Source: Candidatus Omnitrophota bacterium
GTDB lineage: Bacteria; Omnitrophota; Gorgyraeia; Gygaellales; Profunditerraquicolaceae
Assembly (NCBI GenBank): GCA_030693145.1
Contig: JAUYBI010000045.1
Location: forward strand, 4,591 to 68,590
DNA length: 64,000 nucleotides
Direction of reading: 5' to 3'
Positions within the stretch are counted from its first letter, which is position 1, and every line of letters starts with the position of its first letter. A program made the position numbers and the translations under genes. The notes below the pieces were generated by a model, which was given only the letters and a program-made list of their open reading frames with translations, was not told where the DNA came from and made no database searches. Below, piece after piece: positions 35,387-52,832 of this stretch.

Positions 35387-35470
35387 GCCGGGGTGTCGAA
35401 ATTGGTATACGATGCGGACTTAAAATCCGCCGTCCGCAAGGGCATGAGGGTTCGATTCCCTCCTCCGGCA
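35387..35470 (+). tRNA. tRNA-Leu (anticodon TAA), class II with a long variable arm
   Basis: The sequence GCCGGGGTGTCGAAATTGGTATACGATGCGGACTTAAAATCCGCCGTCCGCAAGGGCATGAGGGTTCGATTCCCTCCTCCGGCA has the anticodon loop CTTAAAA and carries no intron. Confidence 0.8.
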
Positions 35471-35482
35471 CTTAAAAATTTT

Positions 35483-35556
35483 GGGCTCATAGCTCAGTTG
35501 GTTAGAGCGTTTCCTTGACATGGAAAAGGCCGGGGGTCCGAATCCTCCTGGGCCCA
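35483..35556 (+). tRNA. tRNA-Val (anticodon GAC)
   Basis: The sequence GGGCTCATAGCTCAGTTGGTTAGAGCGTTTCCTTGACATGGAAAAGGCCGGGGGTCCGAATCCTCCTGGGCCCA has the anticodon loop TTGACAT. Confidence 0.85.
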
Positions 35557-35603
35557 TTTTGGTTTATTAGTTTGATAATCAGAGAACTCAGAAACTAACA
35601 ATT

Positions 35604-37322: not shown

Positions 37323-37337
37323 AAGAGGGAGGAAGCT

Positions 37338-37888: not shown

Positions 37889-37914
37889 GTAGGGGAGGTT
37901 TAAACCTCCCCTAC
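37889..37914. repeat. Palindromic hairpin element GTAGGGGAGGTTTAAACCTCCCCTAC (family copy 3)
   Basis: A perfect 26-bp palindrome lies between infC and rpmI. It shares an extended left flank (GACAGTGTAAYAAAYCTTGYTGACTTTCAATA) with the copy at 63487. Confidence 0.9.
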
Positions 37915-37979: not shown

Positions 37980-38180
37980 ATGGGAAAGTTAAAAACAAAA
38001 CGCGGGGTAGCTAAGCGTTTTAAAATTACCAAAAAAGGTAAAGTTAAGTATTCACCCGGCGGAAAAAGCCACTTAGCTTCGTCTAAGAGAACAAAAAAAA
38101 TTAGAAATTTAAGGAGACGCAGGACACTGGCGGGTAAAAAAGAAGTAAGATTTATCAAATCTATGCTACCTTATGGGTAG
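37980..38180 (+). CDS. rpmI: 50S ribosomal protein L35
   Basis: The 66-aa product begins MGKLKTKRGVAKRFKITKKGKVK... Confidence 0.9.
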   Translation: MGKLKTKRGVAKRFKITKKGKVKYSPGGKSHLASSKRTKKIRNLRRRRTLAGKKEVRFIKSMLPYG

Positions 38181-38200
38181 ATTTTATGTAAAATAACATT

Positions 38201-38318
38201 TCCCCCTCGCGGGAGCTCGGGGTCATTTTTCCCCAAGCGCCGGAGGCTGGGGAAAAATTCTCCCCCTCGCGGGAGCTCGGGGTCATTTTTCCCCAAGCGC
38301 CGGAGGCTGGGGAAAAAT
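38201..38318 (+). repeat. Two tandem copies of a 58-nt structured repeat in the rplT 5' leader
   Basis: The unit is TCCCCCTCGCGGGAGCTCGGGGTCATTTTTCCCCAAGCGCCGGAGGCTGGGGAAAAAT, at 38201-38258 and 38261-38318. It contains a 10-bp perfect stem (TTTTTCCCCA/TGGGGAAAAA) with a 12-nt loop AGCGCCGGAGGC. A third copy lies at 51203-51260. Confidence 0.9.
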
Positions 38319-38331
38319 GAGGAGAAATGTA

Positions 38332-38679
38332 ATGGCAAAGGCTAAACATAGTGTAGCAACTCGTAAAAGAAAGAAGAAGGTTTTAAAACAAGCTAAAGGG
38401 TTCTGGGGTGATCGGAGTAAGCAATATCAGCAGGCCAAAAGAGTATTGGTGCACGCGCTCAGATATGCTTACCGGGATCGCCGGAATAAGAAGCGTGAAT
38501 TCCGCAGTCTCTGGATTGCCCGGATTAACGCGGCTTGCCGAGAGGTTGGGATTTCCTATAGCGTATTTATGAACGGGCTCAAGAAATCTAAGATTACTCT
38601 AGACCGTAAGATTTTGGCGGATTTAGCAGTAAGAGACAATCTTGCTTTTAAAAAACTAGTGGAGATAATCAAGAAATAA
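38332..38679 (+). CDS. rplT: 50S ribosomal protein L20
   Basis: [37 protein letters not shown]... The start is taken at the ATG at 38332, which is preceded by GAGGAG. The track's earlier ATG lies inside the repeat. Confidence 0.88.
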
Positions 38680-38733
38680 AATCCTCCCCCCGTTCCTCTG
38701 GAAAGGATTGGGTGGAAGGCTAAGGGGTTATCC

Positions 38734-39378
38734 ATGTATGTAATTATTGTCGGTTGTGGGAGAGTGGGCTCAGAGCTGGCTAAGCTTTTATCCGGAGAGG
38801 GCCATGATGTAGTGGTTATTGATAAAACTCAGGAGGCATTTAAGCGCCTGGGGGATACTTTTAATGGCCTGACTATGGTCGGTAATGGTTTTGACCTGGC
38901 GCTTCTAAAACAGGTAGGCATTGAAAAAGCGGATGCTTTTTGCGCGGTAACTGATGGAGATAATACTAATTTAATTAGTGCCCAGGTGGCTAAAAAGATT
39001 TTTTCCGTGCCCAAAGTTTTTGCCCGGGTTTATGATCCGCAGCGCGCGCATATTTACGCGGCTCTGGGTTTGGATATTATCAGCGGCACAATGCTTTTTT
39101 CCGCTATGCTCAGAGATAAAATTATTGAAAGCAGATTTTCTAGCTATTTAATTGAATCCAAGGATTTAGGGGTTATTGAAATTGAAGCCAAGAATGACCT
39201 GGTCGGTAAAACCATTCAGGATATAAATATCCCGGGAGATTTTATTGTCGTGGCCTTACGTAGAATGCAGGGGGTAGTGATCCCGGAGCCTAAAACCGTT
39301 TTAAAAAATAAAGATATCTTAATGGGGGTAGTAAAAGTTTCCAGCCTCCGGGCGGTCAGGGAGAAGTTTCATTTATAA
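38734..39378 (+). CDS. K+ transport regulatory subunit, KtrA/TrkA-type (RCK_N + RCK_C)
   Basis: The 214-aa protein has the NAD-binding motif IIVGCGRVGSELA. Confidence 0.85.
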   Translation: MYVIIVGCGRVGSELAKLLSGEGHDVVVIDKTQEAFKRLGDTFNGLTMVGNGFDLALLKQVGIEKADAFCAVTDGDNTNLISAQVAKKIFSVPKVFARVYDPQRAHIYAALGLDIISGTMLFSAMLRDKIIESRFSSYLIESKDLGVIEIEAKNDLVGKTIQDINIPGDFIVVALRRMQGVVIPEPKTVLKNKDILMGVVKVSSLRAVREKFHL

Positions 39379-39384
39379 CTTTGG

Positions 39385-39418
39385 GATCGTAGCGGAGGTT
39401 TAAACCTCCGCTACGATC
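39385..39418. repeat. Palindromic hairpin element, variant GATCGTAGCGGAGGTTTAAACCTCCGCTACGATC (family copy 4)
   Basis: A perfect 34-bp palindrome whose arm variant (G to C at one arm position) is compensated on the other arm. It lies between the two ktrA/trkA paralogs. Confidence 0.85.
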
Positions 39419-39448
39419 TGACGGGAAAAATCGGAGGTTTGTAACGGG

Positions 39449-40111
39449 ATGTATATTTTAATTGTCGGCGCAGGTAAGGTGGGTTATTTTCTGGCCAGGA
39501 GGCTTTGCCAGGGTAAGCACACGGTAAGTGTCGTAGATAAAGACCGCCAGATTTGTGAAGAGTTGGCCAAGGAATTAGATGCCCTGGTAGTGAACGGCGA
39601 TGCCTGCGACCCAAAAATATTGGAGGAAGCCGGAATTTCGCGGGCTGATGTTTTAGCCGCGGTCACCGGTGATGATGAAGATAACCTGATTATTTGTCAG
39701 TTAGCTAAAGAAAAATTTAACCTGCGGCGTACTGTGGGCCGGGTAAATAATCCGGATAATGAACATACCTTTAATGAGCTAGGTATTGATGTGCCGGTTG
39801 ATTCCACCAAGATCATTGCTAAAATTATTGAAGAAGAAGTTTCTTTTTCGGATTTTGTAAATCTAATGAGTTTTAAGCGCGGCAAGCTGGCGATTGTGCG
39901 CGTGGATCTTCCGGATGATGCTCCCGTGATTAACCGGCAAGTAAAAGATATCGCTTTACCCAAAGACGCGGTATTGGTTTCCATTGTCCGGGGAGAAGAG
40001 GTTATTCTTCCCAAGGGCGATACGGTGCTTAAAACCGGAGATGATGTCATCGCGCTTACTTTAATCGGTAATGAGCCGCAACTCTTAAGCCTTTTAGCCG
40101 GGAAGCTTTAA
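39449..40111 (+). CDS. Second KtrA/TrkA-type K+ transport regulatory subunit
   Basis: The 220-aa protein has the NAD-binding motif ILIVGAGKVGYFLA. Confidence 0.85.
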   Translation: MYILIVGAGKVGYFLARRLCQGKHTVSVVDKDRQICEELAKELDALVVNGDACDPKILEEAGISRADVLAAVTGDDEDNLIICQLAKEKFNLRRTVGRVNNPDNEHTFNELGIDVPVDSTKIIAKIIEEEVSFSDFVNLMSFKRGKLAIVRVDLPDDAPVINRQVKDIALPKDAVLVSIVRGEEVILPKGDTVLKTGDDVIALTLIGNEPQLLSLLAGKL

Positions 40112-40116
40112 AATAC

Positions 40117-40233
40117 ATGAGATTTAAACCTGCCTTAAATATTATCTTCGGGATAACCACAGAAATTTTCTATGTGTTTTTTATCATGCTGGCAGCGTTT
40201 TTGATCTGCTGGGCAATATATTTTAAGCTATGA
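40117..40233 (+). CDS. Putative 38-aa hydrophobic peptide translationally coupled to trkH
   Basis: An unlisted small ORF, MRFKPALNIIFGITTEIFYVFFIMLAAFLICWAIYFKL, forms a single TM helix. Its TGA overlaps the trkH ATG (ATGA). The RBS is weak. Confidence 0.3.
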   Translation: MRFKPALNIIFGITTEIFYVFFIMLAAFLICWAIYFKL

Positions 40234-41735
40234 TTCTTAGGCCCCGCCTTGAAGATTTAAAGATCATTGGTTTTTACCTGGGGAAAATAATTTTGGGATT
40301 AGCCTTGACCATGGTTATTCCTATTTTAATTGCTTTGTGTTTTGGAGAGATAAACCCCGCCCTGGATTTTTTCATTAGCATCGAAATATCTGCTTTATTG
40401 GGACTACTCTTAATTAAAATCTGCCAGACGAACAAGGATTTAAATTGGATGCAGGGTATGATTGTCGTTAGCTTATCCTGGGTGGTGGCCATGATTTTAG
40501 GGGCGATTCCGTTATATCTAAGCGGCCACTGGAAATCTTTTTTAGATGCATGTTTTGATGCCATGAGCGGGTTTGCTACCACCGGCTTGACCTTGGTTCA
40601 GGATTTGGATCATCTTTCTTATACGCACAACCTTTGGCGGCATTTGATTATGTTTTTGGGAGGCCAGGGGATTGTGGTGATTGCGCTTTCTTTTTTTGTG
40701 CGCGGGTCCTCCGGTGCATTTAAAATGTATGTGGGTGAGGCCCGGGATGAGAAGATTATGCCCAACGTCATTAATACCTCCAGGTTTATTTGGATGGTAA
40801 GCATTGTTTATCTGATTCTAGGTACCCTGGCCTTAGGCCTCACCGGGATATTTAACGGGATGAAGCCGCTTAATTCATTTTTTCATGGCGCCTGTATCTT
40901 TATGGCGGCTTTTGATACCGGAGGATTCAGCCCGCAATCACAAAACATACTTTATTACCATAGCTTTGCTTATGAGGTGATTACCGTGATCCTGATGGTT
41001 CTGGGGGCGCTTAATTTTAAACTGCATTACCATTTATGGATGGGGAATCGTAAGGAGATAATTAAAAATATCGAAACGCGGACCCTTTTGGTCACCATTA
41101 TTGCTACTTTTTCTGTGGTGGCCGTAGGTTTAGCGCAGACGGGAATTTATCCGGCGGCGGCAATGCTTTTCCGTAAAGGATTTTATCAGCTTATCTCCGG
41201 CCACACCGGGACAGGATTTCAGACTATTTATGCCCAGCAGTTTGGCGCGGATTGGAACCCATTGGCACTGGTAGGAGTAATTTTAGCTATGGCTCTAGGC
41301 GGGGCAGTCTGTTCGACTACCGGGGCAATTAAGATGTTGCGCATCGGAATTATTTTTAAAGCTTTTAAAGAGGATCTCAAAAGGATCATTATGCCGGAGA
41401 GGGCAATTGTTATTGAGAAATTTCACCATATCCGGGAGGTGTTTTTAGAGGATAAGTTGGTGAGGGGAGCTTTAATGATTACCCTGGCTTATATAATTTT
41501 ATATGGCTTAGGCGCACTGGTCGGGATGTTTTATGGTTATCCTTTTTTAGAAGCACTCTTTGAGTCTACCTCTGCCGCCGCTAATGTGGGCTTATCTTGC
41601 GGTATTACCAATATTGATATGCCGGCTATGCTCAAGGTTACTTATATACTGCAGATGTGGGCTGGACGCTTAGAGTTTATGTCCGTATTTACCATTCTTG
41701 GATTTTTATTTGCCAGCATTAAAGGGAAACGATGA
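40230..41735 (+). CDS. trkH: TrkH/KtrB-family K+ transporter membrane subunit
   Basis: The 501-aa polytopic protein has the TrkH selectivity-filter-like GG motifs (TGGFS). Confidence 0.88.
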   Translation: MILRPRLEDLKIIGFYLGKIILGLALTMVIPILIALCFGEINPALDFFISIEISALLGLLLIKICQTNKDLNWMQGMIVVSLSWVVAMILGAIPLYLSGHWKSFLDACFDAMSGFATTGLTLVQDLDHLSYTHNLWRHLIMFLGGQGIVVIALSFFVRGSSGAFKMYVGEARDEKIMPNVINTSRFIWMVSIVYLILGTLALGLTGIFNGMKPLNSFFHGACIFMAAFDTGGFSPQSQNILYYHSFAYEVITVILMVLGALNFKLHYHLWMGNRKEIIKNIETRTLLVTIIATFSVVAVGLAQTGIYPAAAMLFRKGFYQLISGHTGTGFQTIYAQQFGADWNPLALVGVILAMALGGAVCSTTGAIKMLRIGIIFKAFKEDLKRIIMPERAIVIEKFHHIREVFLEDKLVRGALMITLAYIILYGLGALVGMFYGYPFLEALFESTSAAANVGLSCGITNIDMPAMLKVTYILQMWAGRLEFMSVFTILGFLFASIKGKR

Positions 41736-42223
41736 GACGGAGAAATCAGAAAATAAGGATCTGCCTTCTGTCCTCTGTCCTCTGCCTTCTGTCCTCTGTC
41801 TGTTTTGCTCAAACTCTTTCCAGTACGGAATTAATCAACAATGCTAAACAATATGACGGAAAGTTAATTACTTATTCCGGAGAAGTCATCGGGGATGTAA
41901 TGTCACGGGGTGAATTTGCCTGGGTAAATATAAATGACGGCCAGAATGCACTGGGCGTTTGGATAAGCTCTGCTTTAGCGCAAGAAATAAAATTTACGGG
42001 AAATTATAAATCTCGAGGCGATCGCCTGGAGATCGTGGGTGAATTTCACCACGCTTGCCCTGAGCATGGCGGAGATTTAGATATTCACGGGCGCTTATTG
42101 CGCAAGATTGCCAGCGGAAGAATGGTTAAAGAGAAGTTGAATTTTGATAAAGCGAGTTTAAGTTTTATTTTATTAGGGGCATTATTCTTAATATGGATAT
42201 TAACTCTATTCAAACGCAAATAG
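41732..42223 (+). CDS. Hypothetical exported protein with a C-terminal TM anchor, translationally coupled to trkH
   Basis: The 163-aa protein has a signal-peptide-like N-terminus encoded by a heptamer repeat tract, a middle HHACPEHGGDLDIHG motif, and a C-terminal hydrophobic helix. Confidence 0.4.
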   Translation: MRRRNQKIRICLLSSVLCLLSSVCFAQTLSSTELINNAKQYDGKLITYSGEVIGDVMSRGEFAWVNINDGQNALGVWISSALAQEIKFTGNYKSRGDRLEIVGEFHHACPEHGGDLDIHGRLLRKIASGRMVKEKLNFDKASLSFILLGALFLIWILTLFKRK

Positions 42224-43206
42224 AAGGTGATTTAGCCGGGGTTGTTTCTGTGCAGGCCCTAGAAGAGGCGCGGATTAAATATCTGGGCAGAAAGGGCATG
42301 ATCGCAGAGTTGACCAGCTCTATCCCCGGACTAGCCGCTGAGCAAAGGGGGATCTTTGGTCAACAGGTCAATGCTTTAAAAAATAAATTACTGGGATTGT
42401 TTGAAGAAAAAGAAAAAACCTTAAAAACTCAAAGTAGTGTTTTAAAGAAGAGCAATTTAGATGTAGGGATGCCGGGAATTGTTCAGGAGCTCGGGCATAT
42501 CCATCCGATTACTCAGATTATTGATGAAATCTGCACCGTGTTTAATCGTATGGGTTTTTCAGTAGTCCAGGGCCCGGAGGTGGAAACAGAATACAATAAT
42601 TTCACCGGTTTAAATATTCCATTAGAACATCCTTCGCGCGATGCCTTCGATACCTTTTATTTAAAAGATTATTCTAAGCTGCTCTTGCGCAGCCACACCT
42701 CTCCGGTGCAGGTGCGCGTCATGAAAACACAAAAGCCCCCTTTGGCCATGGTGGTGCCGGGAAGGGTGTATCGTCCGGACGCGGTGGACGCCAGCCATCT
42801 TTTTATGTTCCACCAGATTGAAGGTTTTTTAGTCGATGAAAATATCAGGTTTTCCGATTTAAAGGGGATTCTGGAACTGTTTGCCAAGAATGTTTTTGGG
42901 CGGGATATCAGCATGCGTTTCCGGCCGCATTTTTTCCCTTTTACTGAACCTTCCGTGGAAGTGGATATCTCTTGTATTATTTGTAAAGGCCGGGGATGCT
43001 CGGTTTGCGGCAGGAAAGGCTGGCTGGAGATCCTGGGTGCGGGTATGATCCACCCGAATGTTTTTAAACAGGTGGGGTATGCTCCAGGCATTTACACGGG
43101 TTTTGCTTTTGGCATGGGGGTAGAGAGAATCACGATGTTAAAATACGGAATCAACGATATTCGTTTATTTTTTGAGAATGATTTAAGATTTTTGAGGCAA
43201 TTTTAG
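42193..43206 (+). CDS. pheS: Phenylalanine--tRNA ligase alpha subunit
   Basis: A 337-aa class II core with motif 2/3 (FRPHFFPFTEPS). Confidence 0.93.
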   Translation: MDINSIQTQIEGDLAGVVSVQALEEARIKYLGRKGMIAELTSSIPGLAAEQRGIFGQQVNALKNKLLGLFEEKEKTLKTQSSVLKKSNLDVGMPGIVQELGHIHPITQIIDEICTVFNRMGFSVVQGPEVETEYNNFTGLNIPLEHPSRDAFDTFYLKDYSKLLLRSHTSPVQVRVMKTQKPPLAMVVPGRVYRPDAVDASHLFMFHQIEGFLVDENIRFSDLKGILELFAKNVFGRDISMRFRPHFFPFTEPSVEVDISCIICKGRGCSVCGRKGWLEILGAGMIHPNVFKQVGYAPGIYTGFAFGMGVERITMLKYGINDIRLFFENDLRFLRQF

Positions 43207-43209
43207 ACG

Positions 43210-45240
43210 ATGAAAGTTACCTATAGTTGGTTAAAAAAATTTGTAGACATAATAATTTCTCCTCAGGAATTGGCAGAGAAGCTGACCATGTCCGGGCTGG
43301 AGGTAGTTTCCTTGGAAAAGAGAGGAGAAAATTTTGTTTTGGAGATTGAGATAACCTCGAATCGGCCCGATTGGTTAAGTGTCCTGGGAATTGCCCGGGA
43401 AGTAAGCGCAATTACCGGATCAAAACTTAAAACCATCAATTTTCAAGAACCGAAGATAAAACGCAAAAATCTTCGGCCGCTAAAAATTTCGGTAGCCAAT
43501 AAACAAGACTGTTCATTTTATAGCGCCCGGATAATTTCTGATGTTCGGGTCAGCCCGTCTCCAGAGTGGCTTAAAGACAGGCTGGAGTCTTTAGGCTGCC
43601 GGAGTGTCAATAATATCGTGGATATCACTAACTATTGTTTATTTGAGTTAGGCCAACCGCTGCATGCCTTTGATTTAGATAAATTGAGTCAAAATGAAAT
43701 TAGAGTGCGCCGGGCTAATGCGAATGAAAAGATTATTACTATTGATGGGGCAACCAAGTTATTGGGCCCGGAAATTTTAGTTATTGCCGACGCCCATCAT
43801 CCGATAGCCATCGCCGGGATTATGGGAGGCAAAGAAACCGAAGTTACGTTTAAGACGCGTAACATATTACTGGAATCAGCGGTATTTAATCCCCTGCTCG
43901 TGCGGCTGGCCAAACAGAGATTAGGGTTGCAATCCGAATCAGCCTATCGATTTGAAAGAGGAGTAGATTCAGAAGCGGTCAGGAACGCTTCTTTGGCAGC
44001 GCAGGAATTAATTTTAAAATTAGCTTCAGGCACTCCTTCCGGGTTCAGGAGACTGGGCGTGTCTAAAGTAACTCACCCCGTGATTAATCTGGATGTCGCT
44101 TATTTAAATAAACTTTTGGGTACAGCCATTCCCGTTTTTAAGGTTAAACAAATTTTAAACAGGTTAGGCTTTCATCTAAAAACTAAAAGCAGAAATATTC
44201 TCGCCGTTAAAGTGCCTGGTTTCCGTCAGGATTTAAAGCTGCCGGTAGATTTGGTGGAGGAGGTTGCGCGTATCTATGGTTATGCTCAAATCTCCCCAAC
44301 CCTTCCGGCGGTAAAGCCGGGCCGAAAAGTTTTAGATAAAAGAGATGTCATTGGCAATATAAAAAATATCTTATGGGGTTTAGGTTTAGATGAGGTAATT
44401 ACCTATAGTTTGGTGGATCGTGGCCTGCTTAATAAATCCGGGATTAATACCGATGCGGGGTTAATTGAAATTTTGAATCCTTTAAGCAAGGAGCAGGAGG
44501 TTTTACGTCCCGCGCTTTACCCCAGCCTTATTCGCGCTCTGGCCTATAATTTAGATCAGCAGCAGGAACGGGTAAGTATTTTTGAGGTCGCCAATGTTTT
44601 TTCCGGACGCCTAAATGCTGTCGCAGAAGACTCTTTACTGGGCATAGCTTTATGCGGGGACAGTGCCTTTTTTACCAAGCAGGGACTGGTTAGAGAAGAG
44701 ATTACTCTGCTGCATTTAAAAGGTATTTTAGAGACCCTGTTGAATCGACTTGGGGTTAAGGGTTTTGATTTCCTCCGCCAAGAAGATAATAAAATAAATA
44801 TTATCATTAATCAAAAGCAGGTGGGTTTTATGCTGGATTTAGCTCCGCAAACCTTAGGCGCTTTTGATATTAAGAACCGGCAAGTTGTCCTGGCCCAGGT
44901 TAATTTAGAGCAATTATCCGGCAGTATAAATTTAGAGAAAAAGTTTTTGAATATTCCTAAATATCCGGCAATTACCCGGAATATAAGTTTCGCGATTAAT
45001 GAGGATATCCCGGTGAAGGGGCTGTTGATGGCGGTAGAGGCAAAAGGTGCGCCGCTATTAGCTCAGGCCAAAATCGTAGATTATTATCAGGGTAAGCAAA
45101 TCCCAGTTGGGTTTAAGGGGTTAACCCTATCTTGCATCTACCGGGTGGATGACCGTACGTTGACTGAAGGGGAAATTGCTCCACTGCATCAGGACATTTG
45201 TTCTTTATTGGAAGAGCGCTTTGGCGTAAAACTGCGCTAA
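43210..45240 (+). CDS. pheT: Phenylalanine--tRNA ligase beta subunit (short form)
   Basis: The 676-aa protein has B3/B4 and B5 domains and an N-terminus MKVTYSWLKKFVDI. Confidence 0.9.
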   Translation: MKVTYSWLKKFVDIIISPQELAEKLTMSGLEVVSLEKRGENFVLEIEITSNRPDWLSVLGIAREVSAITGSKLKTINFQEPKIKRKNLRPLKISVANKQDCSFYSARIISDVRVSPSPEWLKDRLESLGCRSVNNIVDITNYCLFELGQPLHAFDLDKLSQNEIRVRRANANEKIITIDGATKLLGPEILVIADAHHPIAIAGIMGGKETEVTFKTRNILLESAVFNPLLVRLAKQRLGLQSESAYRFERGVDSEAVRNASLAAQELILKLASGTPSGFRRLGVSKVTHPVINLDVAYLNKLLGTAIPVFKVKQILNRLGFHLKTKSRNILAVKVPGFRQDLKLPVDLVEEVARIYGYAQISPTLPAVKPGRKVLDKRDVIGNIKNILWGLGLDEVITYSLVDRGLLNKSGINTDAGLIEILNPLSKEQEVLRPALYPSLIRALAYNLDQQQERVSIFEVANVFSGRLNAVAEDSLLGIALCGDSAFFTKQGLVREEITLLHLKGILETLLNRLGVKGFDFLRQEDNKINIIINQKQVGFMLDLAPQTLGAFDIKNRQVVLAQVNLEQLSGSINLEKKFLNIPKYPAITRNISFAINEDIPVKGLLMAVEAKGAPLLAQAKIVDYYQGKQIPVGFKGLTLSCIYRVDDRTLTEGEIAPLHQDICSLLEERFGVKLR

Positions 45241-45461
45241 GATTGATTCCGTTATAAATATGTGCTATACTTTTTTTGGAATCAAAGAGCTCTTTAAAGA
45301 TATCCCTGCGGTGCGCGTTGGAAATTTGATAATTGTTGAACCAACACCATATTCACGGGAGCCCCATTATTCTTTAGGCACTTGTGCCCAAAGATAGGGC
45401 ACCCATCTGAAACCAAATCGGTTCAGACTATCAGTCCAACGGCACTCTTGCGGGGATTTTT

Positions 45462-45513
45462 TTATCCGCCACAATACTTTGGCGGATAATCCGCCATGCT
45501 TTGTGGCGGATAA
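45462..45513. promoter_or_regulatory. Nested dyad-symmetry array of GGCGGATAA half-sites; a candidate operator
   Basis: TTATCCGCCACAA (45462-45474), TGGCGGATaATCCGCCA (45480-45496) and TTGTGGCGGATAA (45501-45513) together give four GGCGGATAA/TTATCCGCC half-sites in alternating orientation, 12 nt upstream of the rarA-remnant ATG. Confidence 0.45.
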
Positions 45514-45525
45514 CCCATCAATCGT

Positions 45526-45720
45526 ATGGACCTATTCACTCAAGAATCCCGGATTTCTGATAAAAACCTTCCTTTAGCAGTACGCCTGCGGCCAACCACG
45601 CTTGATCAGCTATTTGGCCAGGAGCATATCTTAGGTAAAAATAAATTACTACGCCGCGCCTCCTCTGCCCCGGGTAAAAAAACCTGTGGGGATATACGAG
45701 AAAAGGATAAGTTAAAATGA
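45526..45720 (+). pseudogene. Remnant of rarA/mgsA (recombination-associated AAA+ ATPase), N-terminal 45 aa only
   Basis: PLAVRLRPTTLDQLFGQEHILGKNKLLRRA aligns with the RarA N-terminus ([30 protein letters not shown]). The frame then degenerates (SSAPGKKTCGDIREK versus GPPGTGKTT) and stops at 64 aa. Confidence 0.55.
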
Positions 45721-46487
45721 TTTTCATTTTGCAAATATTAGTAGCCTTGGGCGCGGGTGTAGTTATCTATGCTGTTTTTGAGTTATTTGCATCCGGTAAG
45801 CCTGAAGCTCCGGCAAAGCAAAAAATCCAGGAACAGCCATTTCCTGCGGCAGATCCTGGTAAAGAGCAAAAAATTCAGCGTTTACAAAGCCAGGTCGCCA
45901 AGTTAGAAAACCAGTTAGAGGCGGCCAAGGTTGTCTCCGTAGGGAAAAAATCCGAATTCCTGGCAGTTAAAGAAAAAGAGGCGGAATTTTCTATAGAGTT
46001 AAAGCGTAGAGAAGAATGGGTGGCTAAAGCGGAGGTAGAGCTAGCCAAGATCAAAGCAGAAAATTTAGATTTAAATAATAAGTTTATTACTAAGGAAAAT
46101 GAGTTGCAGGGGGAGTTTACCAAAAATGTAAATTTAACCCGTCAGATGCAGGAAATAAAAGCCGCCTTGGAAGCAAAAGAGATGGCCTGCCGGCTTAAAG
46201 AAGATCAGTTGCAGGCGCAGAAACATCAAATCGCCAGCCAGTTTAAAAGCATTAATGAACATTTAGCGGTGATTGCCGAGTTTAATCGTAAAGAAAAAAT
46301 CAGCGAGTGGGTGCCCAAATTAGAGTTTAATAAATTAAATGAAGAGTACACAAAATTAGAGAAAGATTTAGAAGCCAGTCAAGAAAGATTAAAAAGTTTT
46401 GCCGTTGAGATTGCGCATTTGCGCCAAAAGGTTGATAAGAAAGCCCCGCTGGCAGAAGAGATTAAGGCTGTAGAAGAGCAAAAATAA
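45717..46487 (+). CDS. Hypothetical coiled-coil protein with an N-terminal TM helix
   Basis: The 256-aa protein has a hydrophobic N-terminus and then heptad-rich K/E/L/Q sequence. Confidence 0.4.
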   Translation: MIFILQILVALGAGVVIYAVFELFASGKPEAPAKQKIQEQPFPAADPGKEQKIQRLQSQVAKLENQLEAAKVVSVGKKSEFLAVKEKEAEFSIELKRREEWVAKAEVELAKIKAENLDLNNKFITKENELQGEFTKNVNLTRQMQEIKAALEAKEMACRLKEDQLQAQKHQIASQFKSINEHLAVIAEFNRKEKISEWVPKLEFNKLNEEYTKLEKDLEASQERLKSFAVEIAHLRQKVDKKAPLAEEIKAVEEQK

Positions 46488-46497
46488 AAGTTAATTA

Positions 46498-46527
46498 CAG
46501 TAGGGGAGGTTTAAACCTCCCCTACTG
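46498..46527. repeat. Palindromic hairpin element CAGTAGGGGAGGTTTAAACCTCCCCTACTG (family copy 5)
   Basis: A perfect palindrome 11 nt after the stop of the coiled-coil ORF. Confidence 0.9.
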
Positions 46528-46551
46528 TTAAAGTAAACAAGGTTTATTACA

Positions 46552-47130
46552 TTGTCAAAGAAAGGAAAAATAATGACTATGAAAATGAAAATATTTATGG
46601 CATTATTAGTATTCAGTTTAACCTTTTTTTACGGAGGGATTTTCGCGATGAATGAAACAATTGTGGTTCTAGAAACCAATCAAGGTAATATCGAGATTAA
46701 GCTGAAAGAAGATATTGCACCTCAGGCCTGTGAGAATTTTATCAAACTAATAGAGAAGGGTTATTACAATGGTTTGATTTTTCACCGGGTGATTAAGGGT
46801 TTTATGCTCCAGGGAGGAGACCCTGCGGGAACCGGAACAGGGGGTACGTCGATTTGGGGTAAGCCTTTTGAAGATGAAGTAACCCCGGTAGCTAAGTTTG
46901 ATGCCGCGGGTATTTTGGCGATGGCCAATAGCGGGCCGAATACCAATGGCAGCCAGTTTTTTATTACCTGCGCTAAAACACCTTGGTTAAATATGCGCCA
47001 CACTATTTTTGGCGAGGTTGTTTCTGGCTTAGAAGTAGTGCAAAAAATCGAAAATACTCCGGTGGATGCTGATGACCGGCCGGTTGTCCAACAGAAGATC
47101 AACCGAGCGTATATAAAACCTAACGCTTAA
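46552..47130 (+). CDS. Cyclophilin-type peptidyl-prolyl cis-trans isomerase, secreted
   Basis: The protein has a signal peptide followed by FHRVIKGFMLQGGDPAGTGTGG and SQFFIT motifs. Confidence 0.88.
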   Translation: MSKKGKIMTMKMKIFMALLVFSLTFFYGGIFAMNETIVVLETNQGNIEIKLKEDIAPQACENFIKLIEKGYYNGLIFHRVIKGFMLQGGDPAGTGTGGTSIWGKPFEDEVTPVAKFDAAGILAMANSGPNTNGSQFFITCAKTPWLNMRHTIFGEVVSGLEVVQKIENTPVDADDRPVVQQKINRAYIKPNA

Positions 47131-47160
47131 AATATCCCGACAAAAAGATATGAATCTCAA

Positions 47161-47190
47161 CAGTAGGGGAGGTTTAAACCTCCCCTACTG
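47161..47190. repeat. Palindromic hairpin element (family copy 6) with the conserved right flank TAATTGATAATTAATAAAA
   Basis: A perfect palindrome between the PPIase and uvrD. Its right flank is shared with the copies at 63526 and 3021. Confidence 0.9.
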
Positions 47191-47218
47191 TAATTGATAA
47201 TTAATAAAATAATTACTC

Positions 47219-49249
47219 ATGGAAAAAATAAATTATCGCCGGGAATTAAATCCCGCGCAGCTTAAAGCCGTAGAGTCTATCCACGGCCCGCATCTGGTTA
47301 TCGCCGGGGCCGGGAGTGGTAAGACGCGGGTTTTAGTGCATCGGGTTGCCTATCTGGTGGAACAAGGTATAGCTCCGGAGCAGATTCTCCTGCTTACTTT
47401 TACGCGTCGTTCAGCCGAGGAGATGCTGCGCCGGGCCAGCCTCCTGTTGGATGAGCGCTGCCGGAATGTTTCCGGAGGCACTTTTCATTCCTTTGCCAAT
47501 ATGATCTTAAGAAAATACGCCAAGCTTTTAGAGATTAACAATAACTTTACTATTCTTGATCAGGCGGATGCCGAGGATGTGGTAAATTTAATACGCACGC
47601 AGTTAAATTTTCATAAATCTAAAAAAACGTTTCCGCGTAAACATGCTATTTTAGAGGTAATCTCTAAAAGTGTGAATAAATCCGAAGAGATCTCCGGGGT
47701 GCTGCTGGATGAATATCCGCAGTTTATTGAATTTGCCGAAGAGATTAAAAAAATACGCGATGCCTATAACAAATATAAACGCCAAAAATCGCTCCTGGAT
47801 TATGATGACCTGTTAGTTTTTCTAAAAAATCTGCTCGCCAAGCATGAAGCTGTGCGCGCCAGCCTCGGCGCTAAATACAAATACATTATGGTTGATGAGT
47901 ATCAGGATACCAATAAGCTTCAGGCGCACATTGCCTGCCTGCTGGCCGCGGATCATGCCAACATCATGGTGGTGGGCGATGATGCCCAAAGCATCTATTC
48001 TTTTCGGGGGGCAAATTTTAAAAACATCATTGATTTTCCCAAGATATTTAAAGGCGCCAAGGTTATTACGCTGGAAGAGAATTACCGTTCTACTCAACCG
48101 ATCCTGAATTTGACGAATGCGGTTATCGCGCAAGCCAAAGAAAAATTCGAGAAGAATCTTTATACCCGGAAGAAGGGGGGAGACATCCCGGTTTTTATCG
48201 ATTGCCCGGATGAAAATTCGCAATCCGTTTTTGTGGCCGAAAAAATCCTGGAATTAAGAGAAGAGGGGGTAGTTTTAAAAGATATGGCCGTGCTTTTTCG
48301 TTCCGGATGGCACTCCAATGATTTAGAGGTGGAGTTAGCCGGCCGGAATATTCCTTTTGCCAAATACGGCGGGCAAAAATTTGTGGAAGCCGCGCACATC
48401 AAAGACCTGGTGAGCTATTTACGCATTGCCTACAATGTGCTTGATCAGGTCAGCTGGTTGCGCGCTCTGGAATTGATTCCCAGGATCGGCCCTAAAACCG
48501 CGGCTAAAATTATCGAGGCAATTCCAGATCAGGCCAAATTAGAGCAGTTGTGGCAGAAGAACGATGAACTTAAAGAACTGTTTGCATTATTGAAAAACAT
48601 AGACCTCAAGCGTGACAGCCCCGCGGAGATCATCGCCAGGTTCCTGGGTTATTATCAGCCATTATTAAAGATCAAATATGATGATTTTAACAAGCGTTTA
48701 AATGACCTGGATTCACTGTTAAGAATCGCCCAGCGCTATAAAACAACCGAGCAATTTTTAGTGGATATGGCTTTGGAACCTCCGGAAAGGATGCTGGTTG
48801 AGCCGGCCAGGCTAAATAAAGATGATACTCCGCTTACCCTCTCCACGATACATTCGGCCAAGGGGTTGGAATGGCATACGGTATTTTTAATCTATGTTGC
48901 CGAGGGGCACCTGCCTTCCTATTTATCTTTAGAGACAGAGGAAAAAATTGAAGAGGAGCGCCGCCTGTTTTATGTTGCCGCTACCCGGGCTAAAGTAAAT
49001 TTATTTTTATTAAAACCGCATATTGATCGTTCTCCCCGGAGTTTTATGGACGGTGGCGGCTCAGTGTTTACCCAGGTTTCCCGTTTCCTGGAGCAGGGTG
49101 GCTTGCTCGGGGAGTTTGTAGATGTACAGAGCGCCGGTATTCCGGATGAACTGGATGATTTAGAATTAGAAGATATTATTGGGGGAAAAAGAAATAAGAG
49201 TAAGGTATTTTTTGAAACCATGGAGGAGTATTTCCGGGATGAGAAATAG
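47219..49249 (+). CDS. UvrD/PcrA/Rep-family ATP-dependent DNA helicase
   Basis: The 676-aa protein has Walker A (GAGSGKT) and the full SF1 helicase motif I-VI set (TFTRRSAEEM, VDEYQDTN). Confidence 0.88.
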   Translation: MEKINYRRELNPAQLKAVESIHGPHLVIAGAGSGKTRVLVHRVAYLVEQGIAPEQILLLTFTRRSAEEMLRRASLLLDERCRNVSGGTFHSFANMILRKYAKLLEINNNFTILDQADAEDVVNLIRTQLNFHKSKKTFPRKHAILEVISKSVNKSEEISGVLLDEYPQFIEFAEEIKKIRDAYNKYKRQKSLLDYDDLLVFLKNLLAKHEAVRASLGAKYKYIMVDEYQDTNKLQAHIACLLAADHANIMVVGDDAQSIYSFRGANFKNIIDFPKIFKGAKVITLEENYRSTQPILNLTNAVIAQAKEKFEKNLYTRKKGGDIPVFIDCPDENSQSVFVAEKILELREEGVVLKDMAVLFRSGWHSNDLEVELAGRNIPFAKYGGQKFVEAAHIKDLVSYLRIAYNVLDQVSWLRALELIPRIGPKTAAKIIEAIPDQAKLEQLWQKNDELKELFALLKNIDLKRDSPAEIIARFLGYYQPLLKIKYDDFNKRLNDLDSLLRIAQRYKTTEQFLVDMALEPPERMLVEPARLNKDDTPLTLSTIHSAKGLEWHTVFLIYVAEGHLPSYLSLETEEKIEEERRLFYVAATRAKVNLFLLKPHIDRSPRSFMDGGGSVFTQVSRFLEQGGLLGEFVDVQSAGIPDELDDLELEDIIGGKRNKSKVFFETMEEYFRDEK

Positions 49250-49267
49250 TCAAACTAGGTAAAACTA

Positions 49268-49347
49268 GGGGACGGTTCTGTTTTTCTTTCAACAGTAGGA
49301 GAGGTTTAAACCTCTCCTACTCTAATGAAAAAAACAGAACCGTCCTC
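49268..49347. terminator. Composite hairpin: a 16-bp outer stem enclosing a variant palindromic element (family copy 7)
   Basis: The outer stem is GGACGGTTCTGTTTTT (49270-49285) paired with AAAAACAGAACCGTCC (49330-49345). The inner element is GTAGGAGAGGTTTAAACCTCTCCTAC (49295-49320), a compensated arm variant. A-runs and T-runs are internal to the stem. It lies directly after the uvrD stop. Confidence 0.6.
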
Positions 49348-49405
49348 TTGAAAACCTCTTCTTTTTACCTTGAGCTGGGAATAAAAGTATGTTAAAATTT
49401 CTAAT

Positions 49406-50056
49406 ATGATTATCAGCCAGCAAAAGCCCCTGGAGGATGTGTTACTCAGCCTTGCAGGGTATAACAAAATATTCTTAATGGGTTGTGGTGAGTGCGCAAC
49501 TGCTTGTAAGAGCGGGGGCCAGCCGGAGATTGCAAAAATACAACAGGCGCTGGAGGCGGCGGGTAAAGTGATTACCGGTTCATGCATTCCGTCTGCGCCT
49601 TGCGTAGCCGCGAAACTTAAAACGGAGCTAGCCAAAAATATAAAGGCTTTACGCCAATCAGAGGCAGCTTTGATTTTGGCCTGCGGTTTAGGGGTGCAGT
49701 CATTTAAAGATAATGACCGCCTGGATTTAGCGGTTTTGCCTGCTTGCGATACCCTATTTGGCGCGGTGATGGACGCGCAAGGTAATTTCTATGAAAAATG
49801 TTCTATGTGCGGAGAATGTGTTTTGGATGCTACCGCGGGGATCTGTCCGTTAACCCTTTGTCCTAAGAGCCTGCTTAATGGCCCTTGCGGCGGAGTGAGC
49901 CAAGGTAAATGTGAAGTAGACAACCAGAAGGATTGCGCCTGGATTTTAATCTATAAGGAATTAGATAAAAAGAAAAAATTAGCATCATTAAAAGAAATTC
50001 GCAAACCTAAAGATTTTAAGAAATCAGCCAGGCCGCATAAATTGATTATAACCTAA
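49406..50056 (+). CDS. Cysteine-rich MTHFR_C-like (MetV-like) protein
   Basis: The 216-aa protein has cysteine clusters GCGECATAC, CSMCGECV and CPLTLCPKSLLNGPCGG that resemble the methylene-THF reductase C-terminal domain family. The gene neighbours a folate gene (5-FCL). Confidence 0.4.
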   Translation: MIISQQKPLEDVLLSLAGYNKIFLMGCGECATACKSGGQPEIAKIQQALEAAGKVITGSCIPSAPCVAAKLKTELAKNIKALRQSEAALILACGLGVQSFKDNDRLDLAVLPACDTLFGAVMDAQGNFYEKCSMCGECVLDATAGICPLTLCPKSLLNGPCGGVSQGKCEVDNQKDCAWILIYKELDKKKKLASLKEIRKPKDFKKSARPHKLIIT

Positions 50057-50057
50057 T

Positions 50058-50495
50058 ATGGCAGAACAGTTTCCTTATAGCGAAAAAGTCATGGACCATT
50101 TTATGAATCCCCGCAATGTCGGGGAGATTCCCGACGCCAGTGGTATCGGCACGGTGGGTAATCCTGTTTGTGGGGATGTAATGAAGATGTATTTAAAAAT
50201 AGAAAATGAAATAATTGTAGATGCAAAATTTAAAACCTTTGGCTGTGGTGCTGCCGTCGCCACCAGTTCTATGGTCACGGAGATGGTTAAAGGGAAAAGT
50301 ATTTCCGAAGCATTAACAATTACTAACAAAACAGTAGCGCAAGCATTGGGAGGGCTGCCCGCGATTAAAATGCATTGTTCGGTTTTAGCGGAGGAGGCCT
50401 TGCGTTCCGCGTTAAAAGATTATTATAAAAAGCAGGGTAAAGAAACTCCATTTGAAGATAAGGGCCATACCCATGAAGGGGAGAGTTGTTTATAG
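50058..50495 (+). CDS. iscU: Fe-S cluster assembly scaffold IscU/NifU-like
   Basis: The 145-aa protein has conserved cysteines (GNPVCGDVMK, GCGAAVATSS, HCSVLAEEA). Confidence 0.88.
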   Translation: MAEQFPYSEKVMDHFMNPRNVGEIPDASGIGTVGNPVCGDVMKMYLKIENEIIVDAKFKTFGCGAAVATSSMVTEMVKGKSISEALTITNKTVAQALGGLPAIKMHCSVLAEEALRSALKDYYKKQGKETPFEDKGHTHEGESCL

Positions 50496-50600
50496 GCTGG
50501 TTATGTTGACCGGGCAGCTTTTTATATTAAAGAGAGTAAAAGTATTGATAGACTAAAGGATATGGATAAAGATGTGCATAAAATAAAAGGTGCGGGGTCA

Positions 50601-51164
50601 ATGGTGAGCAAAGTCGAACCATTGACAAAAGCTCAAATACGTAGTAAAATTCTTTTAAGATTAAAAACACAGAAGGAGGAAGACCGAAGCCGAAAAAGTA
50701 AGCTGATTACAGATAAACTTTTAAGGAATAAGGTTTTTAAAAAGGCCAAGATAGTGATGTTTTACATCGCTTTTGGTGGGGAAGTAGATACTGAAGAAAT
50801 GATTAGGGAAGCTAAAAAAATAGGCAAGCTTATATGCGTGCCAGTTTGCAGAAAAGATAAAGAGACTATGCAGCCAGCCATATTAGAAGATCACGCTAAA
50901 TTGAAAAAAGGCCCCTATGGTGTCTTAGAGCCTGTGGCGCTCACTCAGGTTAAACCAGAGGACCTGGATCTTATTATTGTTCCCGGCCTAGCTTTTGATA
51001 AAAAGGGTAATCGTCTGGGCCGCGGTAAAGGTTGCTACGATCGTTTCTTATGTACGCTTTCTGAAGACACACCTTCCATAGGTTTGGCTTTTGATTTCCA
51101 AATCTTACCCCTAGTCCCCACCACCTGCTATGATGTAAGCGTCAAGAAAATTATCTTTTCCTAG
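50601..51164 (+). CDS. 5-formyltetrahydrofolate cyclo-ligase
   Basis: The protein has the motifs LIIVPGLAFDKKGNRLGRGKGCYDRFL. The start is taken at 50601 with RBS AAAGGTGCGGGG. The track start at 50562 is an alternative. Confidence 0.8.
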   Translation: MVSKVEPLTKAQIRSKILLRLKTQKEEDRSRKSKLITDKLLRNKVFKKAKIVMFYIAFGGEVDTEEMIREAKKIGKLICVPVCRKDKETMQPAILEDHAKLKKGPYGVLEPVALTQVKPEDLDLIIVPGLAFDKKGNRLGRGKGCYDRFLCTLSEDTPSIGLAFDFQILPLVPTTCYDVSVKKIIFS

Positions 51165-51202
51165 AACTCCTAAAAAAGCTTAAAACTAAGTAAAGTAATG
51201 TT

Positions 51203-51260
51203 TCCCCCTCGCGGGAGCTCGGGGTCATTTTTCCCCAAGCGCCGGAGGCTGGGGAAAAAT
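51203..51260 (+). repeat. Third copy of the 58-nt structured 5'-leader repeat, upstream of rny
   Basis: Identical to the units at 38201 and 38261, and it ends 8 nt before the GAGGGAGG SD of rny. Confidence 0.9.
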
Positions 51261-51275
51261 GAGGGAGGAAGAGAA

Positions 51276-52832
51276 ATGATTTTTAACATAGTGGTGCCCA
51301 TCTTTGTTGCCCTGGTCGCCGCATATTGCGGCTATTTCCTAAGAAAGTATATCGCAGAGAAAAGAGTAAAAAGTGCCGAACTGCAAGCTGAGCATATCCT
51401 GGAGGTAGCCAAAAAAGATGTTTTGGATAAGCGCCGGGAAGCAGAGTTAGAAGCCAAGGATCTTTTGTATCGTATGCGCCAGGATTTTGAGCGCGAGATT
51501 AAAGATCGCAGGCTGGAGATTGTTAATCTTGAAAGAAGATTAACCCAGAAAGAAGAAAATATCGACCGCCGGATCGATCTGGTTGAGAAAAAAGAAAAAG
51601 AGACCGAGGTGCGCAATGATAATCTTAAGAAGCAGGAAGAATCTTTAAAGTCAAAAGAGAACCAATTGCAGGCTTTGATTGCCGAAGAAAAAGAGCGCCT
51701 GCAGAAGATTTCCTCTTTATCCGCGGAAGAAGCAAAGCAAATTCTTCTGGGCCGTTTGAATGAAGAATTAAATAATGAAAAGGCGGTATTTATTCGGCGC
51801 CAAGAAGAAGAGGTGCGCAGTATCGCGGATAAGAAGGCCCGCGAAATTTTAAGTTTAGCTATTCAACGCTGCGCAGCAGAGCATACCGTAGAATCAACTG
51901 TCAGCGTGGTGACCTTGCCTAATGATGAGATGAAGGGCCGGATCATCGGCCGGGAAGGAAGAAATATCCGGGCATTAGAGATGGCCACCGGGGTAGATGT
52001 GATTATTGATGATACGCCCGGAGCGGTTACTTTGTCCGGGTTTGATGCTGTGCGGCGGGAGATTGCCCGCCTGAGTTTAGAGAAACTTATTTCTGATGGA
52101 AGAATTCATCCCGGACGGATTGAAGAAATTGTGGAAAAGACCAAGAAAGAAATGGATGAGAAGATCCGCGAGGAGGGGGAGCGAGCTGCTTTTGAGGCAG
52201 GGGTTAATGGCTTGCATCCGGAGATAATCAAGCTTTTAGGCCGGCTTAAGTATCGCACCAGCTATGGCCAGAATGCTTTGCAACATTCCAAAGAAGTTTC
52301 TTTTTTATTGGGAATTATGGCTTCAGAGTTAGGCCTGGATTTTAAGCTTGGCCGGAGAATCGGGCTCCTGCATGATATTGGTAAAGCCGTGGATCATCAG
52401 GTCGAAGGTACGCATGCTAAACTGGGTGCGGATTTGGCTAAGAAATATAATGAAAGCGCTGAGGTGGTCGCTGCGGTTGAATCGCATCATGAAGAGTCGC
52501 CTGCGCAGAGTATGTACGCGGTTTTAGCCATTGCTGCTGATGCGGTGAGCGCCGCCCGCCCCGGGGCCAGAAGGGAAACACTGGAGATATATGTTAAGCG
52601 CTTGGATAAACTGGAATCTATTGCTAATCTTTTTAAGGGAGTAGAAAAATCTTTTGCCATTCAGGCCGGTCGAGAGATCCGGGTAATTGTGCAGCCGGAG
52701 AAAATAAACGATTCTGAAGCAGTGACCATGTGCAGGGATATACGTAAGAAGATTGAAGAGGGGATGGAGTATCCCGGACAGATCAAGGTTACAGTCATCC
52801 GTGAGATGCGTACGATTGAGTATGCTAAGTAA
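51276..52832 (+). CDS. rny: Ribonuclease Y
   Basis: The protein has an N-terminal TM helix ([21 protein letters not shown]), a coiled coil, KH and HD domains ([11 protein letters not shown]). The start is at 51276, after the SD. Confidence 0.9.

Follow-up and report, generated by a model that had tools for sequence, protein, structure and literature searches.

Why do the genes of ribosomal protein L20 (rplT) and RNase Y (rny) share an identical leader? In a 64-kb stretch of the Candidatus Omnitrophota contig JAUYBI010000045.1 (hereafter the window, to which coordinates refer unless a locus of another contig is named), exact matching finds the 58-nt sequence TCCCCCTCGCGGGAGCTCGGGGTCATTTTTCCCCAAGCGCCGGAGGCTGGGGAAAAAT exactly three times, in identical copies and on the + strand only, and a shuffled control sequence gives no match to this 58-mer. 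A preliminary description of the window had correctly located the three units at 38201-38258, 38261-38318 and 51203-51260, and had proposed that they form a cis element tied to translation starts, through which a regulator common to rplT and rny would act. We find that the unit is not a gene-specific regulator of either gene; on balance, it is probably a member of a lineage-specific, non-coding and non-autonomous dispersed repeat that homes in on Shine-Dalgarno (SD) sequences at their 5' edge. The features on which the argument rests are as follows.

38201-38258, + strand: repeat unit copy 1, upstream member of the two-copy tandem in the rpmI-rplT gap, found by exact match, nhmmer and covariance model; hairpin 1 at about 38202-38222, 10-bp stem and loop of hairpin 2 at 38226-38257
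38259-38260, + strand: TC linker, which makes the tandem period 60 nt
38261-38318, + strand: repeat unit copy 2, gene-proximal (covariance model score 100.7 bits); hairpin 1 at 38262-38282, hairpin 2 with a 13-bp stem at 38283-38320
38319-38324, + strand: rplT SD GAGGAG, directly adjoining the unit, with the ATG at 38332
38332-38679, + strand: rplT, ribosomal protein L20 (NCBIfam TIGR01032, 158.9 bits), the gene served by the array
38187-38200, + strand: AU-rich left arm TGTAAAATAACATT, ahead of the first unit of the rplT array
51203-51260, + strand: repeat unit copy 3, single, before rny (covariance model score 95.7 bits); hairpin 1 at 51204-51224, hairpin 2 with a 13-bp stem at 51225-51262
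51261-51268, + strand: rny SD GAGGGAGG
51276-52832, + strand: rny, RNase Y (NCBIfam TIGR03319, 742 bits)
51187-51202, + strand: AU-rich left arm TAAGTAAAGTAATGTT of the rny copy
37980-38180, + strand: rpmI, ribosomal protein L35, upstream cistron (NCBIfam TIGR00001)
50562-51164: MTHFS, 5-formyl-THF cyclo-ligase, 5' of the rny copy (NCBIfam)

The NCBIfam matches agree with the identities given earlier to rplT and rny. The gene order they define is thrS-infC-rpmI-(two units)-rplT, so that the rplT array is intercistronic, rpmI being the upstream cistron, and MTHFS-(one unit)-rny-ymdB for copy 3. Several structural details of the preliminary description also hold, namely the 10-bp stem TTTTTCCCCA/TGGGGAAAAA of hairpin 2 with its 12-nt loop AGCGCCGGAGGC, and the common left flanks GTAAAATAACATT and GTAAAGTAATGTT, of the form GTAAARTAAYRTT. 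One does not: the unit was said to end 4-9 nt ahead of the SD, whereas it adjoins it (...AAAAAT/GAGGAG at 38318/38319 and ...AAAAAT/GAGGGAGG at 51260/51261, the slash marking the boundary), and the gap of 7-8 nt is the one between SD and ATG. In a gene-adjacent copy, stem 2 is lengthened to 13 bp (UCAUUUUUCCCCA/UGGGGAAAAAUGA) and takes in the first two bases of GAGGAG, while array-internal junctions read AAAAA(T/C)TCTCCCCC throughout the family.

How widely is the unit distributed? A hairpin-2 pattern scan with fixed stems and a free loop, run on one genome per GTDB species, returned 61 loci, 55 of which lie in nine Candidatus Omnitrophota metagenome-assembled genomes (MAGs), one of them labelled Planctomycetales; the other six are unrelated chance hairpins with unrelated loops. 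A metagenome scan anchored on hairpin 1 gave 44 more loci. The census, made with pattern scans, a profile hidden Markov model (nhmmer) and a covariance model, covers 887 kb from the nine Omnitrophota MAGs and several metagenomes. In these 887 kb nhmmer counts 162 full copies: 111 are gene-proximal, 41 are array-internal (head-to-tail, with a period of 60), seven are upstream array members or variants with nested sequence, and three are cut by contig ends. Not one of the 162 is antisense, intragenic or away from a gene start, and the only partial copies are hairpin-2-only stubs at upstream array ends. The repeat consists of a core of about 60 nt, to which an AU-rich left arm of about 35 nt may be added, and is tandem-amplifiable.

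The host range is a narrow Omnitrophota clade. The 64 kb searched from three relatives with an RNase Y identity of 85-92% contain no copy, and the rny leaders there are empty; the more distant Omnitrophota searched yielded no diverged relatives of the family. Viral contigs yielded no copy, which speaks against a phage origin. The preliminary description could name no matching leader motif, and Rfam indeed holds none: at gathering score there is no match to L20_leader or any other family, and at E<=10 only chance matches of the miRNA or CRE type appear. Nor did the Omnitrophota literature that we searched contain a description of a hairpin repeat abutting the ribosome-binding site (RBS).

The placement of the repeat follows a strict rule. 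(T/A)GAGG… and then a start codon come after each gene-proximal copy, and in 108 of the 111 an ATG lies 7-20 nt past the unit (at 11-16 nt in 98 of these 108). The tie to translation starts is thereby confirmed, all 162 copies being sense, and the random scatter with respect to start codons and orientation that was named beforehand as evidence to the contrary is clearly not seen in the genome and metagenome census. The three copies without an ATG at this distance represent two cases: rsfS, found in loci L081 and L105, and L099, where an insert of another 55 nt separates a three-copy array from the native SD. Directly after the rsfS copy (L081 6936-6960, identical in L105) there is no ATG, GTG or TTG at the expected distance, and the frame apparently starts at an ATA, 7 nt past GAGGAG. 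The remaining copies lie upstream in tandem arrays of 60-nt period that end against an (A)GGAG SD, and the rule as a whole has one real exception. Because the distance between unit and ATG is not frame-locked (30/20/12 for the three values of the offset modulo 3), the unit is not a coding extension; with no conserved start codon in the left flank across copies, an N-terminal extension of the MIRU or RPE type is ruled out. An open reading frame (ORF) passes through the rny copy (51198-52832).

The genes served belong to 54 families of unrelated functions. Those checked with Pfam or NCBIfam include the ribosomal proteins S3, S11, S20, L16, L20 and L35, as well as YebC, a PilT-like ATPase, MlaD, PhoU, a secretin, BioY, ExbB/MotA, a SIS-domain isomerase, bactofilin, enolase, Hsp70, YajC, NifU, RsfS, CvpA, ketopantoate reductase and RNase Y; lipoproteins also occur among the products. 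Others, which we take from their N-termini to be L7/L12, S6, RpoA, ClpP, rubredoxin, MetK and PanD, are putative. Within ribosomal protein operons the repeat is intercistronic (rpmI-rplT, rplV-rpsC, rpsC-rplP), and elsewhere it is preceded, at a distance of a few to about 25 nt, by the end of a canonical promoter of the TTGACA-17-TATAAT type (e.g. L012, L042, L005/L071 and the rpsT loci L009, L024 and L041), so that the element makes up most or all of the 5' untranslated region (5' UTR) there. Note that 88% of the genes in these loci lie on the element's strand, a comparison without power to tell orientation relative to the gene from orientation relative to replication. For annotation, the repeat accounts for gaps of 60-180 nt in the ribosomal protein operons of these Omnitrophota and pinpoints true start codons, including the apparent ATA start of rsfS.

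Does the repeat come and go at these sites? Of 141 orthologous gene starts, 33 are without the element. Six clean comparisons between filled and empty sites reveal no target-site duplication or scar, and place the right boundary exactly at the native SD. For instance (parentheses enclosing the element), filled L005 reads CATTAA(AACTCTCCCCC…GGGGAAAAATG)AGGAGGCGAAAGATG and empty L021 CCTTAA/AGGAGGCGTAAGATG, the sequence common to both past the boundary being AGGAGGCG; filled L002 reads TCTAGT(CTCCCC…AAAAATGA)GGAGGTC and empty L044 TCTAAT/GGAGGTG; and the filled rny leader of the window corresponds in a relative, L107, to the empty …CATA/AGGAGGAAGAGAAATG. Since the right boundary falls at the gene's own SD, the ubiquitous TGAGGAG is mostly the TG of the element followed by a native AGGAG.

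Copy number varies as well. The arrays hold one copy in 73 cases, two in 25 and three in seven, and orthologous genes differ from one another (one or three copies at pilT, one to three at phoU, one or two at rplT). The repeat also hosts other hairpins: one 31-nt mini-hairpin (TCACGCCTGTGGCGGACTCCGCCAGAGGCGG) is nested in the hairpin-2 loop at one and the same position, CCGG^AGGC, in four loci (L050 3880-3915, L017, L033 and L012), yielding a composite subfamily of 94-102 nt that has itself spread, and in L010 a different palindrome is nested in the same loop. Further subfamily variants (loop GGTGGC; GGCAGGGG; CTTGAGGG together with GATGAGGG) are common to copies at different loci. The AU-rich left arm, with the consensus GTAAAAGTTTCAARRAAATCTAWGYAAARTAATGTT, accompanies 49 of 97 arrays versus 5 of 184 SD sites without the element. 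It lies within the inserted DNA in some filled/empty pairs (L011 versus L007, L001 versus L036), and between orthologues it is 28% divergent, hence not conserved. Neither unit nor arm contains a sigma-70-like site, which argues against a promoter in the arm, the actual promoters lying further upstream.

The descriptive picture (a family with a fixed placement, polymorphic in presence and copy number, free of duplications, open to nesting, conserved in its core and confined to a narrow set of hosts) is secure. How it arose is a matter of interpretation. A copying mechanism is required because more than 50 unrelated genes have been reached in a clade whose synonymous divergence is about 0.25. 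In the reading that we consider probable on balance, new copies would land, or survive, only directly 5' of an (A)GGAG SD and in gene orientation. Selection alone is unlikely to account for this, for none of the 162 copies lies elsewhere in intergenic DNA, where other bacterial repeats persist; this distribution leads us to infer a target specificity for the 5' edge of AGGAG. Clean, duplication-free junctions, hairpin ends, a single conserved flank and the lack of inverted termini disfavour a MITE of the DDE type, and the junctions and ends would rather suggest a single-strand (Y1/HUH-type) or site-specific recombinase acting in trans, whose target might be the SD itself (AGGAG, in the opposite strand CTCCT), insertions within genes being removed by selection. 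The 5' end of the element, CTCCCCCTC, comes close to the reverse complement of GAGGAGG in the flank, a complementarity that recalls the guide-target pairing of IS200/IS605 elements.

Once in place, the element would be transcribed within the 5' UTR or the intercistronic RNA and fold as two autonomous hairpins, leaving the SD core single-stranded, so that translation initiation would be tolerated. By analogy with 5' stem-loops, which stabilise mRNA, and with REP hairpins in operons, the structured 5' block probably shields the RBS from what lies upstream and slows exonucleases as a by-product, and copy number could modify expression. A bolder version, which we put forward as a tentative possibility only, holds that the repeat is mobile DNA homing to the RBS through the SD (perhaps by means of CTCCCCCTC) without duplication, and that its tandem number is a heritable dial on translation or mRNA stability. 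If so, bacterial mobile DNA would gain a new principle of target choice, and this little-studied phylum would possess a portable 5'-UTR system of natural origin; and if excision is single-stranded, a circular or junction form …AAAAATG/CTCTCCCC… would be expected.

Several observations weigh against homing. No mobilising enzyme was found linked to the element in the loci examined. A search with an approximate query for the IS200/IS605 TnpA gave no match, and a RAYT-like query gave a single Y1_Tnp gene (IS200-like, RAYT type; L061:1-564, - strand, JAHIKK010000009.1; Pfam 63.9 bits) in an element-bearing genome, with no element copy in the 130 nt upstream of it. This gene is a candidate mobiliser of hairpin repeats, most plausibly of the GTAG-tagged palindromes described below rather than of the unit. 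The GGAGG/CCTCC present in these abundant palindromes is never a target of the unit, so that a pentanucleotide alone does not suffice as the rule. Three filled/empty pairs have GAGGAG next to the element versus a weaker SD in the empty orthologue (GACAAG, GGGG and GGGGGG), so that the element may sometimes bring or select a better SD. Finally, the core is conserved five times better than neutral sites and retained at the same genes in several species, which would also fit a host-selected function, and covariation is too sparse to prove that the conserved structure is one of RNA rather than DNA.

These last points lead to the alternative that survives best, plausible although less likely than homing: a portable 5'-UTR module selected by the host, in which the hairpins beside the SD would serve as a shared site of post-transcriptional control or processing. 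Its reader would be a hairpin-binding translational regulator, or RNase III, Y or E processing combined with a stabilising 5' hairpin; the roughly 50 genes would form a coordinated set, as proposed for Neisseria REP2/CREN, whose output copy number would tune. Such a module would explain the strict position and orientation at start sites, the stronger SD of some filled sites and the many housekeeping or highly expressed genes served (six ribosomal protein genes, rpoA, dnaK, a clpP-like gene, eno and yajC). The AU-rich arm with the stable hairpin that follows it may also resemble known entry sites of endonucleases such as RNase E/Y.

The module also gains from the conservation of the repeat. Between orthologous loci of different genomes, the 58-nt core is 4.4-4.8% divergent, compared to 25% at third codon positions of the downstream gene, 6.2% at first and second positions and 26-28% in the element's own upstream flanks; something must therefore hold the core sequence, be it selection on a host function or gene conversion combined with selection for copying competence. 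The T5/A5 and C4/G4 stem halves are near-invariant, even in copies found through the other hairpin, and the variable positions are mostly unpaired, on the 5' side of the internal loop and in the GGA triloop, besides the top A-U pair. The loop sequence itself is not conserved (its consensus has the GGA that a CsrA-type leader would show both there and in its SD, but GGT, GGG and AGA are common variants) and tolerates nested hairpins, which counts against the module. Other facts also speak against the module: the genes served are functionally unrelated, close relatives differ in presence and carry one to three copies at one gene, the family is absent from the 64 kb of the relatives with a similar RNase Y, and a module that reaches more than 50 genes still needs a copying mechanism.

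Is the conserved structure RNA, and does it act on transcription or at the DNA level? Alone, the unit is predicted to fold into hairpin 1 (CCCC-CUC-GC-GGGA-GC-UC-GGGG, -8.9 kcal/mol) and a 13-bp hairpin 2 (-21.2 kcal/mol), only the first two bases of GAGGAG being within the hairpin-2 stem and the SD core being free. In its minimum free energy fold, the rny leader forms a three-way junction with the SD sequestered. Over 100 natural contexts, the mean probability of pairing between the SD core and the C-rich 5' end is 0.16, and with the unit folding with its SD free, SD sequestration by the C-rich end, or an RNA thermometer or riboregulator, is not a general property of the family. When the element is deleted in silico, SD accessibility rises only modestly, from 0.39 to 0.54, an effect due in part to the two SD bases in the hairpin-2 stem.

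As an attenuator or pause site, the unit would use hairpin 1 and UCAUUUUU as a weak intrinsic terminator, read-through being modulated by hairpin 2 and array length. The preliminary description had excluded a terminator for want of a U-run; this stands for the whole unit, which no U-run follows, but not for hairpin 1: UCAUUUUU comes after it, and in each of the three window copies CCTCGCGGGAGCTCGGGG+TCATTTTT passes a simple scan for terminator-like sites. We nevertheless regard attenuation as very unlikely: the stem is short and weak, UCA breaks the U-tract, up to three tandem copies lie inside essential ribosomal protein operons, whose downstream genes real terminators would starve, and the fixed SD abutment is left unexplained.

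A DNA-level role, in which the 10-bp inverted repeat with its 12-bp spacer would serve a dimeric DNA-binding protein as operator, or recombination as its site, without any function in RNA, seems equally remote. TTTTTCCCCA-N12-TGGGGAAAAA is a perfect inverted repeat and is conserved, and covariation does little to separate the two levels: 97.8% of stem cells are standard pairs, double changes occur at two pairs only (e.g. U-A to A-U at the T-run base in the yebC copies L092 and L095), and in an earlier alignment RNAalifold found no compensatory pair. However, gene co-orientation and SD abutment are landmarks of RNA and translation, not of promoters, and many copies lie inside operons, far from promoters. 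One-sided stem changes on the sense strand are mostly compatible with G-U pairing (14 G-U-type versus 6 A-C-type cells), which is weak evidence and only a hint of constraint at the RNA level.

The least probable explanation, which we practically discard, is the one put forward initially, a leader motif specific to rplT and rny, since the two window genes with a unit beside their SD turn out to be two among at least 54 unrelated gene families whose occupancy and copy number vary between relatives. The search for further copies that the preliminary description called for has thus pointed away from a shared L20/RNase Y regulator. Each of the candidates it named fares poorly. For an L20 autoregulatory mimic, there is no L20_leader match, and the array sits between rpmI and rplT rather than upstream of infC or rpmI; known L20 operators lie upstream of infC in Bacillus subtilis and upstream of rpmI in Escherichia coli. 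An RNase Y autoregulation site is contradicted by the empty rny leaders of the near relatives, and a ribosome or small-RNA decoy, based on the GGAGG of the consensus loop, is weakened by the GGTGG, GGGGG, AGAGG or GAAGG found there in other copies. More generally, membership in an L20 or other ribosomal protein leader family finds no support in the Rfam covariance models at gathering score, and restriction to the operon of the binding protein, a trait of such leaders, is ruled out by the diversity of the downstream genes. For motif hunting, the lesson is that an identical leader at two genes of one window can be a genome-wide repeat rather than the mark of a shared regulator.

Which known repeats does the unit resemble? 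It belongs with upstream, RBS-associated dispersed repeats, among which it is set apart by its exact abutment on the SD, its amplification in tandem and the cleanness with which it is inserted and lost. Neisseria REP2, with the similar Borrelia IR sequences, and the mycobacterial MIRU come closest. REP2, a contact-regulated element found upstream of pilC1, crgA and other genes, is 120-150 bp long and has its own promoter, RBS and ATG; it forms two stem-loops, lies directly upstream of ORFs in gene orientation and in the 5' UTR of the mRNA, occurs in tens of copies per genome and is reported to define a co-regulated set of virulence genes, and IR sequences similar to it are found on Borrelia plasmids (PMC3184786). 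Like REP2, our unit has two stem-loops, is oriented with the gene immediately downstream, is an RBS-associated part of the 5' UTR and reaches tens of copies in a genome. Unlike REP2, it measures 58-60 nt, has no sigma-70 promoter (promoters are separate and upstream, or the position is intercistronic) and no ATG, the spacing being variable, mostly uses the SD of the gene and forms tandem arrays; promoter, ATG and size thus distinguish it from REP2 proper, to which no sequence relation was found.

MIRU, for which a review cites Supply et al. (1997), are units of 40-100 bp located between operon cistrons in one orientation, with tens of copies per genome and a strain-variable tandem number, and they contain small ORFs that overlap the flanking stop and start codons (PMC3184786). 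The unit shares with them the intercistronic position, the operon orientation, the tens of copies per genome and a variable tandem number (one to three copies), but it has no coding or coupling ORF, which rules out MIRU proper, and SD abutment, which defines the unit, does not define MIRU.

The likeness to REP/REPIN and other IS200/IS605-derived repeats is more partial. It extends to a short GC-rich hairpin repeat without target-site duplication or terminal inverted repeats, to high identity within a genome, to long-term persistence and to a conserved short flank on one side; Y1 enzymes insert 3' of a 4-5-nt motif and leave one conserved flank, and the traits of the IS200/IS605 type in the unit are its hairpins, the absence of duplication and the invariable (A)GGAG (CTCCT on the opposite strand) to its right. 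REP elements bear a GTAG or CGTC tag (PMC3733652). The unit has neither at its ends on either strand, and whereas REP/REPIN occur in either orientation, mainly at gene 3' ends and in the gaps between convergent genes, its position at gene starts and its sense orientation are fixed in all 162 copies; together these differences rule out REP/REPIN. A better REP candidate in these genomes is the family of GTAG-tagged palindromes mentioned above. Correia elements (CREE/NEMIS), ERIC, RUP/BOX and MITEs are likewise small, non-autonomous and co-transcribed, and their RNA hairpins can alter processing and stability; they differ from the unit in having terminal inverted repeats, target-site duplications, both orientations and varied distances to genes. 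In particular, the unit lacks the marks of a DDE-derived MITE, for the ends CTCTCCCCC... and ...GGGGAAAAATG are not inverted repeats and none of the six comparisons shows a duplication.

Small bacterial repeats such as REP, MITE, Correia and ERIC are normally scattered over intergenic DNA in both orientations, whereas here all copies are sense and abut an SD. Such a placement implies either a recombination system addressed by the RBS or very strong selection for a function in the 5' UTR, and either would be new for this class of elements. Related genomes with zero, one, two or three units at the same gene moreover provide a natural experiment on how hairpins next to an SD affect translation and mRNA decay.

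Other hairpin families accompany the repeat. The GTAG-tagged family consists of a perfect palindrome, GTAGGGGAGGTTTAAACCTCCCCTAC, that resembles classical REP and has nine copies in the window:

3023-3048, 8416-8441, 37889-37914, 39389-39414 and 46500-46525: GTAG palindrome, copies 1-5
47163-47188, 49295-49320, 63477-63502 and 63518-63543: GTAG palindrome, copies 6-9

One copy lies between infC and rpmI, some copies have longer conserved flanks in common, and variants show compensatory stem changes (GTAGCGGAGG…CCTCCGCTAC, GTAGGAGAGG…CCTCTCCTAC and GTAGGGTGGG…CCCACCCTAC). A third family, ACACCCCGCGC-loop-GCGCGGGTGT, forms a tandem pair at 32218-32317 and also occurs in L010, L007, L011, L085 and L008; it is the palindrome that the element of L010 carries in its hairpin-2 loop. 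Copies of a fourth, GGGGACGGTTCT…AGAACCGTCCCC, are found downstream of genes at many loci (about 49266 in the window).

Besides these repeats, the window contains a tRNA cluster (Cys, Leu and Val) at 35279-35557 and, between the two element-bearing loci, a 6S RNA gene at 45300-45460 (Rfam RF00013, 64.3 bits). Within the long ORF 53674-55485, an exact direct duplication of 39 nt with a spacing of 42 nt (55370-55450) would encode an in-frame protein repeat of 14 residues. A non-ATG start codon is usual for infC, which here spans 37323-37844: its frame stays open all the way between the end of thrS (stop at 37322) and its first ATG (37422), and the match to the IF3 profile begins only at profile position 30, so that the true start is an upstream non-ATG codon.

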